Source of the DNA: Candidatus Saccharimonadota bacterium | GTDB taxonomy: Bacteria; Patescibacteriota; Gracilibacteria; BD1-5; UBA6164 | Length of the DNA: 32,000 nucleotides | Direction of reading: 5' to 3' | Assembly: GCA_965227835.1 (NCBI GenBank) | Contig: OZ245768.1 | Span: 420,001-452,000, forward strand | Shown here: in pieces, positions 3,229-15,638 of the stretch | How positions within the stretch are numbered: the stretch's first letter is position 1 | How the letters are laid out: every line of letters begins with the position of its first letter | The notes under the pieces: generated by a model | The model's input: only the letters and a program-made list of their open reading frames with translations | Databases searched by the model: none | Told to the model about the DNA's origin: nothing | Translations under genes and position numbers: made by a program

Positions 3229-3266
3229 TAGTTTTTCTGCAGAATTTTAATTTTGCATAAGTACCT

Positions 3267-3377
3267 TTAATAAATTTCTCCCAAGGTTTCTTTCATTTCT
3301 GCATATCTTAAATCTTTCCTAGATTGTATTTTTCTAAATTCTTTACCCTGATTTTTTACTTCTTTTTTAGTTGGCAT
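3267..3377 (-). CDS. possible small basic protein (36 aa)
   Basis: ATG at complement 3375-3377, stop TAA at 3267-3269. Translation MPTKKEVKNQGKEFRKIQSRKDLRYAEMKETLGEIY. No Shine-Dalgarno and no homology recognised. Confidence 0.25.
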   Translation of the reverse strand: MPTKKEVKNQGKEFRKIQSRKDLRYAEMKETLGEIY

Positions 3378-3398
3378 AAAATTTTGATTAAAATAATA

Positions 3399-3433
3399 AT
3401 ACAACTTAATTTTAACATAAGTTGTATTTTTTT
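3399..3433. terminator. bidirectional hairpin terminator downstream of the FemAB-like gene
   Basis: Perfect 10-bp stem ATACAACTTA / TAAGTTGTAT with T6 on the plus side and an A/T-rich tract on the minus side. Confidence 0.6.
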
Positions 3434-3494
3434 GTCAAAAATATGTTCTGTTTTGAGGAAGTAATTAATTCTAAAATCTTTCAACTTTCTTTAA

Positions 3495-4547
3495 TTATTC
3501 AGGTTTTTTGTAATAATATCATCTCTTCTTTCTTCTCATACTTTCTATAATCCAATTAAACCAATATTTACTGGATATAGGTAAATCTTGAGTATGGAGT
3601 AAACTATAATCATAACCTCAAAATTTTCTTTTGAATTTTGTAACTCAAGATAGAGGATGTTTTTTGTTATCATCAGGTGAAATTCACCAAAAATTATATA
3701 GTTTACAACCTCTTTCTTTTGCATCTTTTATAGCTTCCCATTGACACAAGTAATTCGGGGAAAATTTATGATTTATTATCTCACTTGTAGCTATATAATA
3801 AACACAAGTCTTTCAAAAAGATATAGTCATAAGTATTGACTCTGTTTTTCATTCAAAACTGGTTGATATAGTATTTATATTATCTCAAAATAAATCATAT
3901 AAATAGTTTATAAAATCACTTGAAAAGGGATGATAACCTACTTTTTTTGAATGTCTTATATGCATATTTGTAAGAATTTCTATTTGTTTTTTAGTGTTTC
4001 ATTTTACTATAGAAACTCACTGTTTTATAGCTCTGTTTATATAATATCTATCTTTTTTCTTTATATTTTTCATCAACTCATCTACACTTTTTGATAAATC
4101 AAGTAAGTGAGTATCTTCTGCATGTTCATGCATAGGAGCATTTATAAAACCTAAATTTTTGAATTTATTTTTATTTTCTACCAAGTTTTTCTCTGTAGAA
4201 TTAATCCTTATAAAATCAAATTTATTATTTCTAGCATAGTTTTTTAAATCTATTATAACTTCTTTTAAAACATCAAAGAAATCTCATTTTATAAGAGGTC
4301 AATGAGGGATAAATAAATAAGATCATCTTTTTGCTCTTATACATATTACCTGCATAACTCATATTAAGCTATTATTTCATTTTTTTGACTCTTTTTCATA
4401 TATTCAATATCTTATAATATCTTTTTTTAATTTTTTTTGAACCTCTCACCATTCCCAAGATTGAAGAAAACTATAAAATTCAAAATCAGATTTTATAATA
4501 AAACTGTTCCAAATATTTTTTTTTGTTATTTCTTTAAGCTTATACAT
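3495..4547 (-). CDS. FemAB-family peptidoglycan aminoacyl/peptidyl transferase (FemX-like)
   Basis: 351 codons open on the minus strand with TGA as sense. N-terminus FLQSWEWGEVQKK. C-terminus YYIATSEIINHKFSPNYLCQWEAIKDAKERGCKLYNFWGISPDDNKKHPLSGVTKFKRKFGG, typical of the FemAB family. Confidence 0.85.
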
Positions 4548-4555
4548 ATTTTTTG

Positions 4556-5830
4556 CTAAAAATTATTTATCAAATTTACAACCCTGTCCAAATCATTTTT
4601 ATTTATTAGTTTATGGCTAGGTAGTGTTAAAATTCTTTCACTTATATTTTCTGCTATTTTACACTTTCATTTTTTATAAAATGCTTTCTTTAAATCTATT
4701 CAGGAAGGAACAATGTTTTGTCCACTCCAGCTTGTTCAAAATATTATTTTATTTTTTCTTCATAATTCTATCAATCTATCTTTTTCTTTTTTTGATTTTA
4801 AAAGTATAGGAAATCTAAATCAGTTGTAGTTTTTTAAATCTTCAAAAACTATTTTCACTTTTGAGTTTTTGATGTTTTTCAAATAATATCATGCATTTTT
4901 TAGTCTTTTTTTAGTGTAGTATTCTAGTTTATCAAATTCTTTTATTCATAGATATGCCAAGGAGTTTGGCAGAGATAAATTAAAATTTGTATCCATAAAC
5001 TTTTTCTCATTTTCACTTAATATTTCTGTTATAATATTTAGTTTTCTTGATGTAAAAATAATTAGTTTTCATAAAGAAAAAAAGTCATAAAATTTATATG
5101 ATAAATATCAAATTATATTGTAAAATAAGTTTCTTATAATTAAAATCTTTGTAGGCATTTGTAGTGTATTTCTTATTCATTGTAGCTTGGAGAAATACTT
5201 TTTATTTTTCACTACAAGAAATCATCAACCAATACTTGATATTACTTTGTCTCTTCAGCTAGAAAAAACTAAGAAATCTCATTCTTGTTTTTCTTTTGAT
5301 AATACTAAACCATGTGCTAAGTCTTCTATAATTATTATTCCCCTTTTTTTAGCTTCTTTTATTATTTTTTCATAATCTCTATGTTTTTTTCAAAAGCTAT
5401 TTTGTAATATAATTACTTTTGTATTTTTATTTATATTTTTTATTAGTTTTTCTAAATCAAAACTTAGGCTGTCTCTTTCTATATCACTATAAACTATTTT
5501 TGCCCTAGATTTAATTACAGAATTACAAACAACACTACAAGTATAAGAATTTACTATAACTTCATCACTTTTTTCAATTCATATAATTTTTAAAGCATGG
5601 TATATAGCAGACCTAGCATTATAAAAACTTAAAATTTTCTTTTTTTTACTTTCTTTTTTATAAGAACTATCTATATTCAAAAGTCTTTTTTCAAGTTTTT
5701 TAATTTCTTCTCATTTTTCTATTTTTTTTATGTATATACTCAATAAAAACAAACTATCGAGCATTTGAGAAAAGCTTATTGTGGAGAAAAAATCAGATAT
5801 TATAGTTTTTTTTAATATAAATTTTGACAT
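4556..5830 (-). CDS. DegT/DnrJ/EryC1/StrS-family PLP-dependent aminotransferase-like protein
   Basis: 425 codons, stop TAG at 4556-4558, 8 nt upstream of the FemAB-like start. Motifs SFYNARSAIYHALK, VIVNSYTCSVV and FSSGRDKVISSIGGGFL (candidate PLP lysine). Confidence 0.75.
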
Positions 5831-5855
5831 TTGCATTATAATGATTATTATATGA

Positions 5856-5927
5856 TAGTTGATATTTCAACAAATAGTATAAGCTTATCTCTATAATTTG
5901 AAAAATTATTTTTTCTTTTTATATGGG
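5856..5927 (+). promoter_or_regulatory. conserved 72-nt upstream block with TATAAT (5892-5897), copy 1
   Basis: 100 percent identical to 6325-6396. The TATAAT lies 76 nt before the ATG. No clear -35 element. Confidence 0.4.
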
Positions 5928-5972
5928 GTTTAGTTTTATTTTAATAAATTCTATTAAACAAAGGAGAATGTT

Positions 5973-6179
5973 ATGGCTTATAGGTTAGAGAATAATGTAG
6001 AAGCTATTAAGATATTTCTATCTAAATTAAATGATAGCAATATTCATGAACTACAAGCGAAAGGACTTAAAAAGTTTTATGATGAACTTATAAATGCTGG
6101 TTTCGGTCATCATGATGCAATAAATATAGTTTCTCGTCAAAATCCAAATTTAACCACTATAGCTAAAGTAAATATTTAA
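5973..6179 (+). CDS. small hypothetical protein (68 aa), paralog 1
   Basis: AGGAG 8 nt upstream of the ATG. No TGA codons. C-terminal KKFYDELINAGFGHHDAINIV is shared with paralog 2. Followed by a terminator. Confidence 0.7.
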   Translation: MAYRLENNVEAIKIFLSKLNDSNIHELQAKGLKKFYDELINAGFGHHDAINIVSRQNPNLTTIAKVNI

Positions 6180-6188
6180 GCTAATTTT

Positions 6189-6224
6189 AAAACACCATTT
6201 GGGATTAATCCCAAATGGTGTTTT
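6189..6224 (+). terminator. rho-independent terminator of paralog 1
   Basis: AAAACACCATTTGGGA-TTAA-TCCCAAATGGTGTTTT, a perfect long stem with a T-run. Confidence 0.85.
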
Positions 6225-6324
6225 CTTAAGGAGATACTGAAAAATTAACATCTATGAAAAAATCAGATATTATAGTTTTTTTTAATATAAATTTTGACAT
6301 TTAATTTTTATTTATTATTGTAGA

Positions 6325-6396
6325 ATAGTTGATATTTCAACAAATAGTATAAGCTTATCTCTATAATTTGAAAAATTATTTTTTCTTTTTATATGG
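6325..6396 (+). promoter_or_regulatory. conserved 72-nt upstream block with TATAAT (6361-6366), copy 2
   Basis: Identical to 5856-5927. Confidence 0.4.
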
Positions 6397-6442
6397 GATT
6401 TTGACTTATTTTAGTAAATTATGTTAAACAAAGGAGAATTTT

Positions 6443-6661
6443 ATGTTAGAAGATTTTGAAAAATTAGATGCATTAACTACGGAGAAAATTTTATCTAATT
6501 TACCTCCTAGCAGTGTTCATCAAATACAGCGGGAAATAATCGAAAATAAGATATGGGTAATGGTACACAAAAAGTTCTTTGATGAACTTATAAAAGCTGG
6601 TTTTACTGAGAAACAAGCAATACAGATAGTTTGCAGTAAAGATACAAATTCTGACAAATAG
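6443..6661 (+). CDS. small hypothetical protein (72 aa), paralog 2
   Basis: AGGAG RBS. No TGA codons. C-terminal KKFFDELIKAGFTEKQAIQIV resembles paralog 1. Followed by a terminator. Confidence 0.7.
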   Translation: MLEDFEKLDALTTEKILSNLPPSSVHQIQREIIENKIWVMVHKKFFDELIKAGFTEKQAIQIVCSKDTNSDK

Positions 6662-6676
6662 CTTTAAGCTAACTTT

Positions 6677-6712
6677 AAAACATCATTTGGGATTAATCCC
6701 AAATGATGTTTT
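6677..6712 (+). terminator. rho-independent terminator of paralog 2
   Basis: AAAACATCATTTGGGA-TTAA-TCCCAAATGATGTTTT. It differs from copy 1 by a compensatory C-G to T-A pair. Confidence 0.85.
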
Positions 6713-6878
6713 CTTAATGAGATACTGCAAAATTAATTTCTATGAAAAAATAATCTTTTTTGCTAATTTTTATCAGGGAAATTTTTGGCTTAGAATAACT
6801 AAACAAAAAATTTTATTCATTAAAATTATCTAAAAAATCTTTATTTTTATCATTAAGAAGTAATTTTTCAGTATCTCC

Positions 6879-8522
6879 TTACTTTCTAAATTTATCAAAA
6901 TATATCCTTGATCATCTTCATTCAAAAAGTATTGTGGAATTTTTGATATTATCCATATTTTCCAATATATTATCTTCTTTAAATCAAGCTTCTAAAATTC
7001 AATCTAGAAAATATTTTCAATAATTCACCCCGCAATAAAATATTTGGTTTACTTCTTTTTTCTTTGCTATTTTTTGTCATAGTTCAAAGTGAATTTTTTT
7101 AGAGTATTTTCACAATTCTAATACATCATCCATAACTAAAACTTTATTTCATTTATATGTCCCAAGTATGTTTATTCAAGCTAAAAGTCATTCAATGGGT
7201 AGATTATAAGAATCATTTATTAAGATGTTACTTTTGTTTTTAAATACTCAAAGTCTATTTTCTGGAAGAGATATATTTTTCAAATATTTTTTAAGGTCAT
7301 TTTGTTTAATTCAAATATCCAAACAAAAAGCTATTACTCAAGTTAGGTTTAATATATTATGTTCTCACACTAAGCTACATTTAAAAGTGTAGTTTTTGTT
7401 TTTATAATGTATTTTAAATTCACTAAATCAGTCATTGGTACCCAATATTTCAGATTGTATATCAAGATTTTTGTCTTTCATTCAATATCTCACCAAATTT
7501 ATTTTTTTCTCATTTATTATAGATTCCTTTATGGCTTTTTTAATATTTTTATCATCTCCATTTACATATAGTGTTCATTTGTTTTTCATAACAGATTCAG
7601 ATATTTCACTTTTACCTTTTATTATATTTTGCTGTGTTCAAAAAATTCATATGTGTTGATTTCAAATAGCTGTCAGGAAACCATGTTTATGATTAACTAT
7701 TTTTCAAAGCAAACTTATTTCTCATATTTTATATGCTCATATTTCAGCTACAAAAAATTTGTATTTGTCGTTTAGTTTATTTATCACTATTTTTGATACT
7801 CATAATTCTGTATTTATGTTTTCGGGTGTTTTTAATGTTTTTGAGTCTTGTTCTAAAATACATGATAACATTTCTTTTATACTTGATTTTCAATAGCTTC
7901 AAGTTATTGCTACCTTTAAGGTATTTTTTGTATTTAGGGATTTTGAAATGGCTTTATTTATAATTTTGTTTTTACTATAATTCACCAAAGGCAAGCTTAT
8001 AAAGTTGTATAAAAATATTATAAGAGGAAGAGCTATAAATATAGTTAATATATATATGTATGTGTAGTTGAAAGAGTTTAAATAGTAAAACATATATAGG
8101 TCTATACCTTGAATTATTATAAATATTGATAAAAGAAAAGTTAATCTAGAACTAAAAACTGGTTTTAAAATGTTTTTCCTGATTATTTTTCATATAACAA
8201 ATATGTTTAGTATCACTAAATACCAAAAAAACATATTATAAAATGTCCCCCAAAATACTATATAGTATGGTGTTTTTGATAAGTATATTAAATATATAGA
8301 TATAGAGTAGAGTAAAAGTATTATATCAATTACAAAAAATACATTAAAAATAGCTTTTTTTCATTGTTTTGTCCATAAATATTCCCTAAATCTATCCCAC
8401 CTATATTCTTTTAATTGTATTGTATAAAGCCAAAAAAGGAGTTTGTAAGCCAAGGGTAAAAATGCTAATATAAAAATTATAGTGTAATCAAGAGGTGTTC
8501 AAATAATAAGTTCTTTTTCCAT
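6879..8522 (-). CDS. murF: UDP-MurNAc-tripeptide--D-Ala-D-Ala ligase (MurF-like) with a polytopic membrane N-terminal domain
   Basis: 548 codons. The first ~190 aa are hydrophobic (about 5 predicted helices). Then comes the Mur-ligase P-loop VAITGSYGKSS (both Gly are TGA, 7890-7892 and 7899-7901). Further motifs: TPENINTELGV, AEIGAYKIGEI, TAIGNQHIGIFG, DSYNLPIEG. Track ORF 7899..8093 is an in-frame fragment. Confidence 0.8.
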
Positions 8523-8612
8523 GCTTTTTTAATATTTAGATATAAAATTTCTTAAATGTTTTCCAAAATATATTTAATTTCTTTGTTTTTTCAAAATACA
8601 GCTTTTATTATC

Positions 8613-9422
8613 TTACATATTCAATAAAAAGTGTTTTACTAATACTTCTGGATCTTTTAGATGTATGGAGTGGGTTTTGTTTTTTAAAACTATAATTTTT
8701 GATTTTTTGATATTATCTTTCATAAAATATCAATCTCTTAGGGGAGTATATTTGTCTTTTTCTCACCATATAATCAAAGTCTCTATATTTATCTTTTTTA
8801 TTTCTTCTTTTAAATCACAAGCTATCATATTTAAATAAGTCTTTTTTAAGTTTGGATTATCAATTGCTTCTAAATAATCATAATTTCAAATTAATCTGTA
8901 AAATATTTTTTTTGTTTTTTCTAAAACAGATATTTTTCTGTTTTTTAAAAAGTTTATTTTATTAAAAGTTTTTGCCGTGATATTTAATATTTTTCTTTTC
9001 ATATTCCTTTTTATATCATTTCTAATTCAAGCAGAATTGTTTAAAACTAATTTATTTATTTTTATTTTTTTTCTGTTTGCTAATTTTATAGCAATAGCTC
9101 ATCAATTACTATGCCCCAATATAATTAATTTATTAAAATTTATATCTTTATAAATTCTTTTTAAGTTTTCTACAAATTCTTCAAATATGATAGCATATTC
9201 ATCTATGTTATATATTTTTTCACATTTTGTATTTTTTGAGGCTCCTGGTATATCAGGAATAAAGACATTATATCAAGATTTTTGTAATATTTTAGAAAAT
9301 TCATTCCAACTATCAGATGATCATCTCCAACCGTGAAGTATTAATATACTTTGATTTTTATTGCTTTTAAATATATTATAACTTATATCTTGTTTGTTTA
9401 TTTTTATTTCTTTTTTTTGCAT
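8613..9422 (-). CDS. alpha/beta-fold hydrolase
   Basis: 270 codons. LILHGWRGSSDSW and the nucleophile elbow LGHSNGGAIA (GG encoded by TGA TGA). C-terminal KTHSIHL fits a catalytic His. Confidence 0.8.
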
Positions 9423-14135: not shown

Positions 14136-15638
14136 TCATATTTGATTTATTAATTTTTCTATATCTGTGGAGCTTATATCATAAAACCTTAATTTTGATA
14201 TATATTTCTTGCTAGAATTTTTTGTAAAACTAAAATCTTTAACACTATAAATAGGTAATATTCTTGAAAAATTATCTAAAGTTATTTTTTCATTGTAATC
14301 TATTCTGTGCTCTTTTTTAAATTCTATTAATTTAAGTAGTTTATAGTTTTTGCCTTTGTACTTTCCCGACTTAACAATTTCATTTAGATTATATAAAATC
14401 ATTTCTTCTCTATTTTCCAAGCTCATATTTCTTACAGATTCTGGTAAATCTTCTTCATCATATCTATTTGTATAAGATAAATCTTTTGGTAGATTGAAAT
14501 ATTTATAATCTCTAAATTGCTTATCATCTATTGCTCAAACAGGATCATCAAAAGTAGGATCATAATATCTATCTCAAACTTTAACCCAAGCATGTCATAC
14601 TTCAGGGAAATCATCAGCATCTATTACATATCATCTAATTACTTCTACATCATTTATTCAAGCAAACATAAGCATATAAACCATCAATTTTGCATATCAT
14701 TCACATACTCAGTCTTTGTTTTTAAATGTTTCTATCCCAGAAAAAATTTTATAATTATCAAAATCAATAGCTTTAGAATAAGAGATGTTTTTAAGTATGT
14801 AGTTATATATATTTTGTATTTTTGATTTTGTACTTAGGTTATTTGTTATATTTTTTGTTTTTTTCTTTAATTTTTCAAAATAATAATCATAGGATGAAAC
14901 AGGAGAGTTTCTTATATCATCAAGAACTTCTTCCAAAAAATAATATTTATTTTCTAAATCTTTCACTAAATCATCTTTTATTAGCCTTATCTTTTTTGGA
15001 TTTTTTACAAATCATATTTCATCTTTTTTTGTAACAAAAAGTAAATCTGTTTCGAGGTTAACTCAATTATAATCTAAATCTCTTTTGCTTACATTTACTC
15101 CTTTTGGAAAAAAACTATAGCTTTTAAAACTATATGCTTTCCAAACTCCATCTTCTAAAAATATATGTTTTTTGGTATAACTTATATTTTTAAAATATTT
15201 AGAATAACTATAACTTTCAATTATTTTTTTTCTTCTTTCTTTTTCAAGAATATATTTTTGCTTGTATATTTCTGATTTTTCACTTTCTGCCAGTGTATCT
15301 TCCAATATATCTTCTTTTTCTTCACTGTTATAATCTATATTATCTTTTTTTATTTCTTCTTCTATTTGTTTTATCTTTTCTTTGCTTAGATAAGAAACTT
15401 GATTTAATACATCAAGAAATTTTTCATTATTTTTATATTTCTTGTTTGTTTTAAAAGATTCAAATTTTTTATTTAAATTTAAAAATATATTTTTCTGAGA
15501 CTCTAGATCATTTTCTTTTTGAATTTTTATCACTAAATTATCAAATAGTTTTTGTACTTTTGGACTTATATAAACTCAAAAACTACTATTTGAAAAAAGA
15601 AAAAATATTGAAATGAATAAGAAGATTTTTTTTATCAT
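14136..15638 (-). CDS. secreted transglutaminase-like cysteine protease-domain protein
   Basis: 501 codons; track ORFs 14136..14426, 14709..14966 and 15063..15533 are in-frame fragments. Signal peptide MIKKIFLFISIFFLFSNSSFG. Cys-His-Asp core GVCEGYAKLMVYML...EVGHAWVKVGDRYYDPTFDDP. Confidence 0.8.

Follow-up and report, generated by a model that had tools for sequence, protein, structure and literature searches.

Phage morons are autonomous promoter-gene-terminator units that are inserted between genes, and they were defined within phage genomes. Concerted evolution by ectopic gene conversion between paralogs is known, for example, from the duplicated tuf genes in enterobacteria. Bacterial MITEs (miniature transposable elements with inverted repeats) and long palindromic intergenic repeats such as Correia, ERIC/RU-1, and RUP are the subject of reviews (PMC10969869, PMC3184786). 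The locus described herein can be compared with each of these systems. It lies in a stretch of 32,000 nt (the window, whose numbering is used unless stated otherwise) covering positions 420001-452000 of the one contig (OZ245768.1, assembly GCA_965227835.1; 1.49 Mb, 25.5% G+C) of a Gracilibacteria genome (G000) deposited as Candidatus Saccharimonadota bacterium. A repeat finder, pairwise alignment, and whole-genome BLAST revealed two head-to-tail units, unit 1 (5786-6255, 470 nt) and unit 2 (6256-6743, 488 nt). Each comprises a promoter-like site, an AGGAG site, an open reading frame (ORF1 or ORF2) of 68 or 72 amino acids (aa), and a perfect palindromic hairpin with a 16-bp stem. The explanation that we favor, at a little better than an even chance, is that such a cassette was inserted, duplicated in tandem, and aged into a pair of old paralogs whose 5′ blocks have been homogenized by gene conversion.

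The divergence between the two units is strongly non-uniform. Two 5′ blocks of 47 and 73 nt, the latter situated in the divergent control region of ORF1 and the aminotransferase gene degT, are identical at every position, and the remainder of the 5′ untranslated region (UTR) agrees at 37 of 45 and the 3′ flank at 77 of 84 positions, whereas the ORFs agree at 54 of 93 nucleotides (58%) in the N-terminal half and at 63 of 90 (70%) in the C-terminal half. When the mismatch positions were permuted 20,000 times, an identical run of 73 or 47 nt was never obtained, the longest run being 40. The first-pass annotation, made from the letters alone, had described two tandem units with near-identical flanks, each with a 47-nt block, an AGGAG site, a small ORF, and a perfect palindrome, and had ranked the flanks above the coding cores in conservation. 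All of this is borne out, and uniform divergence, the outcome against which the per-segment identities were computed, is not seen. The identical block that it gave as 72 nt is real but measures 73 nt, the unit-2 coordinates having been off by one.

The same tandem pair is present in an independent metagenome assembly (L028, ENA ERZ25074195) and is therefore no assembly artefact. No third copy of the unit was found in the window genome, where only the ends of a dispersed repeat recur, and exact-pattern scans of metagenome and genome contigs for the leader plus the terminator core returned none. Between the two perfect blocks lies a 22-nt island with nine differences, a sharp local divergence; it covers the start codon of degT and the -10-like hexamer of the ORF promoter. 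An ATG at 5923/6393 begins a short upstream ORF that overlaps the start codon and is open in both units; its length of about 20 codons is at chance level, and it has no ribosome-binding site.

For the 61 aligned codons, the Nei-Gojobori method (NG86) gives a replacement divergence (dN) of 0.50 and a silent divergence (dS) of 0.48, and their ratio (omega) stays at 1.0-1.5 in all sub-segments. Where the residues agree, at 23 positions, six codons have changed, for a total of about 14.6 silent sites. In the flanks, 24 of 271 nt differ, about 0.09, and the silent sites of the ORFs are about five times more diverged than these noncoding sequences. Given that dS is close to dN and about fivefold the flank divergence, positive selection on amino acids is insufficient alone. 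The first-pass annotation had offered diversifying selection as a possible cause; as a sufficient one it fails, since dS matches dN and since only 3 of the 219 nt of ORF2 distinguish two strains whose sequences otherwise diverge by 4-6%. A diversity-generating retroelement was considered as well and rejected, because no adenine bias is apparent: the 90 substitutions fall into all classes, and A is the unit-1 base in 30 of them and the unit-2 base in 28. The flanks themselves are heterogeneous. A presumably neutral repeat fragment at the junction of the units differs by 11% from its full-length counterpart and the 3′ flank by 8%, while the 47-nt relic of degT differs by nothing despite having no coding role in unit 2. 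Since the 3′ flank and the repeat fragment differ by 8-11%, the 5′ blocks would have been homogenized later than the duplication.

The L028 strain is 94-96% identical overall (window 3266-8596 against L028 3521-8901) and mosaic. Tracts without any difference span 5243-6324, which includes all of unit 1, 4470-4979, and 7601-7880, amid other segments that differ by 4-8%; this alternation points to frequent homologous recombination within this Gracilibacteria species. In unit 2 of L028, five of the seven noncoding differences switch to the unit-1 base. ORF1 is identical in the two strains and the three changes in ORF2 comprise two synonymous substitutions and W38R, so that rapid diversification shows no sign of continuing. 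Between the murF-like and hydrolase genes next to the locus, L028 contains an extra segment of about 780 nt (L028 8902-9680) with a 215-aa ORF that has no Pfam match; its equivalent in the window is 8597-8613, where the segment is absent.

The favored explanation may be set out as follows. In an ancestor of this Gracilibacteria species, a self-contained monocistronic gene would have been inserted between the murF-like and the degT-like gene, on the strand opposite to theirs. The inserted unit would have possessed a sigma-70-like promoter, a leader of about 115 nt, an AGGAG site, an ORF of about 60-70 aa, and a bidirectional hairpin terminator, and its product was presumably a small all-helical protein of a phage-associated, uncharacterized family. 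A copy of a MITE-like repeat of about 167 bp would have stood just downstream of the unit before the duplication. The tandem duplication may then have arisen by illegitimate recombination, or by slippage during replication, at a pair of GAAAAAAT octamers, of which one falls within degT codons 15-17 and the other lies 30 nt into the repeat. The resulting paralogs would by now be old (silent divergence about 0.5) and under little overall constraint (omega about 1), although the family core (K-K, D, A-G-F, A, and I) is retained. Ectopic gene conversion between the units would hold the 5′ control blocks of 47 and 73 nt identical, and the coding cores may have become too diverged, or too distinct functionally, for conversion. 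Gene conversion of the flanks, the other cause offered in the first-pass annotation, is thus the best-fitting explanation and probably holds.

The octamer GAAAAAAT occurs three times, namely at the start of unit 1, at the duplication junction, and inside the complete copy of the repeat, and unit-to-unit similarity begins exactly at the first of these. Unit 1 ends in the first 37 nt of the repeat, which pass directly into CAGATATT..., the unit start. No similarity was found outside the first and third octamer copies. An octamer at three sites combined with no outer similarity is what a single event of unequal exchange or slippage at an 8-nt microhomology leaves behind, and a duplication bounded in this way accounts both for the half-repeat at the junction and for the relic of degT. 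That the duplication also copied the 5′ end of degT had been recognized from the start. The N-terminus of degT, (MQ)MSKFILKKTIISDFF, aligns with MLKKTIIGEFF and MKKIIISEFF in two congeneric genomes (G001 and G002, respectively); owing to this conservation, the 47-nt block is genuine coding sequence (codons 2-17), and 6256-6302 is a relic copied from it. In unit 2, the first ATG of degT is destroyed by a change from GCAT to AATT.

The same two congeners define the insertion site. In both, the murF-like gene precedes the degT-like gene on the same strand, with no plus-strand cassette; they adjoin directly in G002, and in G001 a gene for a 115-aa membrane protein lies between them, of which no remnant was found in the window genome. 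A conserved murF-degT operon is split by the cassette, which is an insertion specific to this lineage. Searches of 60 relatives with ORF1, ORF2, and the unit DNA, and of 400 genomes of the class with a family profile, gave only chance-level matches. Conservation in relatives, which the first-pass annotation had taken as a touchstone, extends to the tandem pair of L028 and is not seen in the congeners or in these wider sets.

Features of the locus in window coordinates
Feature	Position	Strand	Remarks
FemAB-type transferase	3495-4547	-	
DegT/DnrJ/EryC1-type aminotransferase (degT)	4556-5836	-	Pfam PF01041, E=1.4e-35; codons 1-17 overlap unit 1 at its left end
47-nt block	5786-5832	+	47/47 against 6256-6302; minus strand corresponds to degT codons 2-17; TTGACA (-35-like) at 5824-5829
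8-nt microhomology, first copy	5786-5793	+	GAAAAAAT; unit-to-unit similarity begins here
22-nt diverged island	5833-5854	+	13/22 against 6303-6324; degT start codon 5834-5836 (-); -10-like TATTAT at 5846-5851
73-nt block	5855-5927	+	73/73 against 6325-6397; TATAAT at 5892-5897; probable ORF1 5′ UTR
AGGAG Shine-Dalgarno site	5962-5966	+	6 nt ahead of the ORF1 ATG
ORF1	5973-6179	+	68 aa; phrog_26408 E=2.7e-3; family profile 40.7 bits, profile positions 12-60
Palindrome 1	6189-6224	.	Perfect, 36 nt, 16-bp stem, UUAA loop, flanked by A-run and U-run; dG -23.1 kcal/mol, z -7.9
Truncated left end of the repeat element	6227-6263	+	37 nt, cut at the duplication junction; 33/37 identical to 6715-6751
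Unit-2 start	6256-6302	+	Junction octamer GAAAAAAT (6256-6263) and non-functional relic of degT codons 2-17
Unit-2 copy of the 73-nt block	6325-6397	+	
ORF2	6443-6661	+	72 aa; canonical C-terminal motif KKFFDELIKAGFTEKQAIQIV; phrog_26408 E=4.2e-6; family profile 50.8 bits, profile positions 32-61 only
Palindrome 2	6677-6712	.	Second perfect palindrome, probable terminator; dG -21.1 kcal/mol, z -8.3
Full-length repeat element (about 167 bp)	6715-6881	.	21-nt terminal inverted repeats TAATGAGATACTGCAAAATTA ... TAATTTTTCAGTATCTCCTTA; third GAAAAAAT at 6744-6751; last 3 bases are the stop codon of the murF-like gene
MurF-like Mur ligase with N-terminal membrane domain	6879-8522	-	Pfam PF08245, E=4.6e-34
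Alpha/beta hydrolase	8613-9422	-	

Judged by their sequences, ORF1 and ORF2 belong to an unnamed family of proteins of about 57 aa that resembles phrog_26408. A profile of both ORFs searched against 1.84 billion representatives recovered small proteins with the same C-terminal motif, and a second search with seven query sequences yielded about 100 members, mostly of 50-70 aa, all annotated as 'hypothetical' and without a Pfam domain. The family consensus is roughly MLEQLKEMLKEVVADDELFDLMAQGLKKAYDALVKAGFTEEQATQIVAGQG (about 57 aa), with the motif KKxYDALVKAGFTEEQAxxIV; G-F and one Ala are invariant, and A, T, E, Q, and I are near-invariant. Against a family hidden Markov model built from 51 other members, with ORF1 and ORF2 left out, ORF1 keeps the full-length architecture but has G-H-H-D for the near-invariant T-E-E-Q, with A-G-F, A, and I retained and three near-invariant residues lost. 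ORF2 has all invariant and near-invariant residues (A52, G53, F54, T55, E56, Q58, A59, and I62 in its own numbering) and a 9-aa insertion in its N-terminal half, which no longer matches the family profile. Each ORF has thus lost a different conserved part, ORF1 the TEEQ and ORF2 the canonical N-terminal half. The claim that the N-terminal halves are completely different went too far, as the pattern L-S-x-L-x-x-S-x-(I/V)-H-x-(L/I)-Q is common to both and not found in other members. In the family tree, the two are sisters with modest support (73/67), on branches of 2.05 (ORF1) and 0.86 (ORF2) against a median of 0.2.

The family is spread over phage early/replication modules and scattered genomes of the Candidate Phyla Radiation (CPR) and of archaea. 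One member lies between a PD-(D/E)XK/AAA_24 protein and a DUF669 protein, by DNA polymerase B and a D5-type primase; others occur in Paenibacillus phage phiERICV, Bacillus phage PHBA67-T, a Clostridium estertheticum prophage, uncultured viruses, and a ThiF/helicase context. Solitary chromosomal members are found in a Magasanikbacteria genome and on other metagenome contigs, and no other phage genes were seen near the cassette in the chromosome studied here. Searches of Pfam, NCBIfam, and PADLOC with the ORFs and 53 family members gave nothing at threshold and no recurrent family. AlphaFold2 (AF2) single-sequence models predict three helices for each protein with moderate confidence (pLDDT 71 and 63). 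A Foldseek search of the PDB gave a best E of 1.4, hence no match at E<1 and no UBA, and a profile search of PDB sequences gave only spurious coiled-coil matches. The UBA-like hairpin that the first reading had seen by eye is consequently abandoned: neither ORF has a Pfam UBA match at E≤1 or a fold match by Foldseek, and sub-threshold UBA-type or CCDC90-like matches (E about 0.1) occur in only two to three family members. A literature search on the motif, or on such cassettes in Gracilibacteria, found nothing. The repeated presence of the family in early regions of phages suggests, as a guess of low confidence, a protein-binding adaptor or regulator of small size and phage origin.

Related architectures were observed among metagenomic proteins. 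One protein of 143 aa from an ENA contig (P0006) contains two in-frame tandem copies of the family module of about 60 aa, so that the module has been duplicated at least twice independently. Two much longer proteins, P0003 (1407 aa) and P0004 (525 aa, with a TAL-effector-repeat match), contain arrays of a similar 'GxTxEQAxxIV' helix hairpin.

The control signals of the two units are closely similar. The promoter-like site of unit 1 reads TTGACA-16-TATTAT (11 of 12 matches) and that of unit 2 TTGACA-16-TATTGT, and the AGGAG site of unit 2 (6432-6436) likewise lies 6 nt ahead of its ATG. The palindromes are probably bidirectional intrinsic terminators: each is a stable hairpin containing G+C, and a U-run, UUUUCUU, follows if the outer A:U pairs open. 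A compensatory change distinguishes the two hairpins, C6195-G6218 in unit 1 being U6683-A6706 in unit 2. From these signals, we infer promoter use and termination in both units. As two strong bidirectional hairpins part degT-femAB from murF, degT transcription would need the 136-nt divergent region shared with ORF1. The leader folds weakly (z -1.9 and -1.0 in the two units, not significant); a structured-RNA leader or riboswitch is unsupported by these values and has no Rfam match, and an Rfam scan of the whole window gave no match at the gathering score.

Several points weigh against the favored explanation. With only two strains known, gene conversion can be called no more than probable, and the 5:1 polarity of the strain differences could equally reflect extra mutations in unit 2 of the window strain. 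The dS of 0.48 is based on about 40 silent sites, and the N-terminal alignment is uncertain. A consensus terminator scan listed neither hairpin, probably since the A- and U-runs pair and lengthen the stem. The 22-nt island between perfect blocks is awkward for simple conversion tracts, and the high-divergence zone has its limits almost exactly at the start and stop codons, a hint of a cause specific to coding sequence. These last two features leave room for the capture of a diverged allele, whereby long-separated alleles of one cassette from different strains or phages would have come to lie in tandem after unequal recombination at their conserved flanks, or recombination in leader and terminator would have exchanged the core of one recent duplicate for a diverged allele. 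The onset of divergence at codon 2 and its end at the stop codon, mosaic strains with zero-difference tracts beside 4-8% segments, a phage-borne family, and ORFs without TGA in a genome with 67.5% of Gly codons as TGA would all be in keeping with it. We nevertheless consider such a capture unlikely: neither a third allele nor a single-copy strain appeared among 5.8 billion proteins or in the contig scans, the half-repeat and degT relic at an 8-nt microhomology are the signature of a simple duplication in situ, and ORF1 and ORF2 are sisters in the tree and share lineage-specific N-terminal residues.

The remaining two possibilities concern the age and the function of the proteins. If the flanks reflected a true young age, the duplication would be recent and the proteins would have diverged under diversifying (positive) selection. 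An omega of about 1.0-1.5 everywhere without a sign of purifying selection, the long branches of both proteins in the family tree, and the loss of a different part of the family pattern from each copy could all be its products. Silent sites as diverged as replacement sites are not, and the two synonymous changes and one replacement in ORF2 between strains, together with the missing adenine-specific bias of a diversity-generating retroelement, render this course of events quite improbable. Less credible still is that the ORFs are decaying or non-functional and that only a noncoding module is kept, i.e., divergent degT promoters and bidirectional terminators that insulate degT-femAB from murF. 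An omega of about 1, the three near-invariant residues missing from ORF1, and two strong hairpins that split degT from murF, which would place the degT promoter within the conserved 5837-5972, would agree with such decay. Yet the frames are open over 68 and 72 codons at 25.5% G+C, where 70 codons without TAA or TAG have a probability of about 0.006 per frame, both ORFs have a strong AGGAG at ideal spacing and the invariant G-F...A core, and the second strain has ORF1 identical and ORF2 nearly so. Insertion, duplication, and conversion of the 5′ blocks between old paralogs is thus the explanation retained here.

The sequence that follows the terminators deserves separate consideration. The post-terminator motif TAAGGAGATACTGAAAAATTA, which the first-pass annotation had correctly located but had counted as part of each unit, is not specific to the cassette; it recurs across the genome, at several sites as two facing copies about 165 bp apart, and is the end of a dispersed element of about 167 bp. 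An alignment of full copies shows a conserved interior with terminal inverted repeats and no ORF. With its small size, terminal inverted repeats, lack of an ORF, and many dispersed copies, the copy directly following unit 2 is classified on sequence grounds as a MITE-like dispersed repeat, outside the cassette proper. The 21-nt terminal repeats are 88-100% complementary, and the element folds as a single long hairpin (-37 kcal/mol, z -6.4). In the window genome, 43 nhmmer matches were obtained, 18 of them of at least 140 nt; copies are listed at genome positions 209578-209743, 459687-459852, 728634-728799, 826180-826346, 1137257-1137426, and 15262-15430. Two genomes from other genera of the same family have 22 matches each (G004 and G006, genera g3 and g5), and no copy was found in the two congeners. 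The outer stems of some copies differ in sequence yet stay complementary, which is unusual for the ends of transposase-bound MITEs. The terminal TAA is often the stop codon of the upstream gene, e.g., of the murF-like gene, and the TA/TAA flanking the element is itself palindromic, so that a target-site duplication is indistinguishable from the repeat. No cognate transposase was identified, although no search aimed at a transposase was made.

The locus is flanked by four minus-strand genes, for a FemAB-type transferase, the DegT-type aminotransferase, the MurF-like ligase, and an alpha/beta hydrolase; a tRNA scan of the window found none. The MurF-like ligase has a hydrophobic N-terminal extension of about 190 aa ahead of Mur_ligase_M (residues 206-399), and this architecture is kept in the congeners G001 (61% identity) and G002 (53%). 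TGA must encode glycine in this genome, because the Mur-ligase P-loop GSYGKSS is readable only under table 25 and because TGA accounts for 67.5% of Gly codons genome-wide (13,178 of 19,533 in 577 ORFs of at least 300 codons), followed by GGT with 16.7% and GGA with 11.6%. The absence of TGA from both ORFs, pointed out at the first reading, is real but concerns only four Gly codons in all (0/4; P about 0.01-0.03). A recent derivation from a phage with the standard code would fit this, though only weakly. Given this absence, both ORFs are directly expressible in standard-code hosts.

The locus offers a clean, resolved case of a small foreign gene settling in a reduced CPR genome, in which insertion and microhomology duplication at a MITE-like repeat would have been followed by concerted evolution of the control region and divergence of the proteins. 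In addition, a previously unnamed small-protein family common to phages, CPR bacteria, and some archaea has been delineated. As an instance of gene duplication with local homogenization, the locus is ordinary; current views are unchallenged, and no long-standing question is opened. A more speculative picture, to which only a small probability is attached, is that the paralogs are a functional pair kept distinct by selection, either as a heterodimer or as specificity variants of a phage-derived adaptor for phage exclusion or for dealings between an episymbiont and its host. Identical promoters and leaders would then serve equal co-regulation, TGA-free coding would stem from a recent standard-code phage origin, and the KAGFTEEQA family would be a widespread and so far unrecognized early-gene module of phages, CPR, and DPANN/methanogenic archaea.

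Compared with described systems, the locus shows both familiar and divergent traits. Like Correia, ERIC/RU-1, and RUP, the dispersed element lacks an ORF, is bounded by terminal inverted repeats, exists in dozens of scattered copies, folds into a single long hairpin, lies near the 3′ ends of genes, and is patchy among genera. It differs from them in that its terminal stems co-vary between copies instead of presenting one fixed transposase-binding sequence. The proteins resemble UBA and the N-terminal 'AGFTxxQA' hairpin of CCDC90-like/DUF1640 proteins in having a short helix-turn-helix hairpin whose turn carries a conserved G-F, whereas no family member reaches any Pfam threshold. A closer likeness is found with phrog_26408 and, more weakly, phrog_28466 and phrog_8955, which are small phage proteins: a length of 55-70 aa, three predicted helices, and the C-terminal motif. 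Unlike the phage members of phrog_26408, ORF1 and ORF2 are chromosomal and monocistronic, with their own promoter-like site and terminator, and they form a diverged tandem pair, an arrangement found at none of the 10 other family loci scanned; ORF1 moreover lacks the near-invariant TEEQ. With phage morons, the cassette shares the single small gene with its own promoter-like site and strong terminator, inserted between genes that are adjacent in relatives, but its recipient is a chromosomal cell-wall operon, and the unit is on the opposite strand. Finally, as in concerted evolution of the tuf type, the units have blocks of perfect identity amid old divergence, and strain polymorphisms toggle between paralog states. 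In the classic cases it is the coding regions that are homogenized, whereas here it would be only the noncoding 5′ blocks, the coding cores having escaped.

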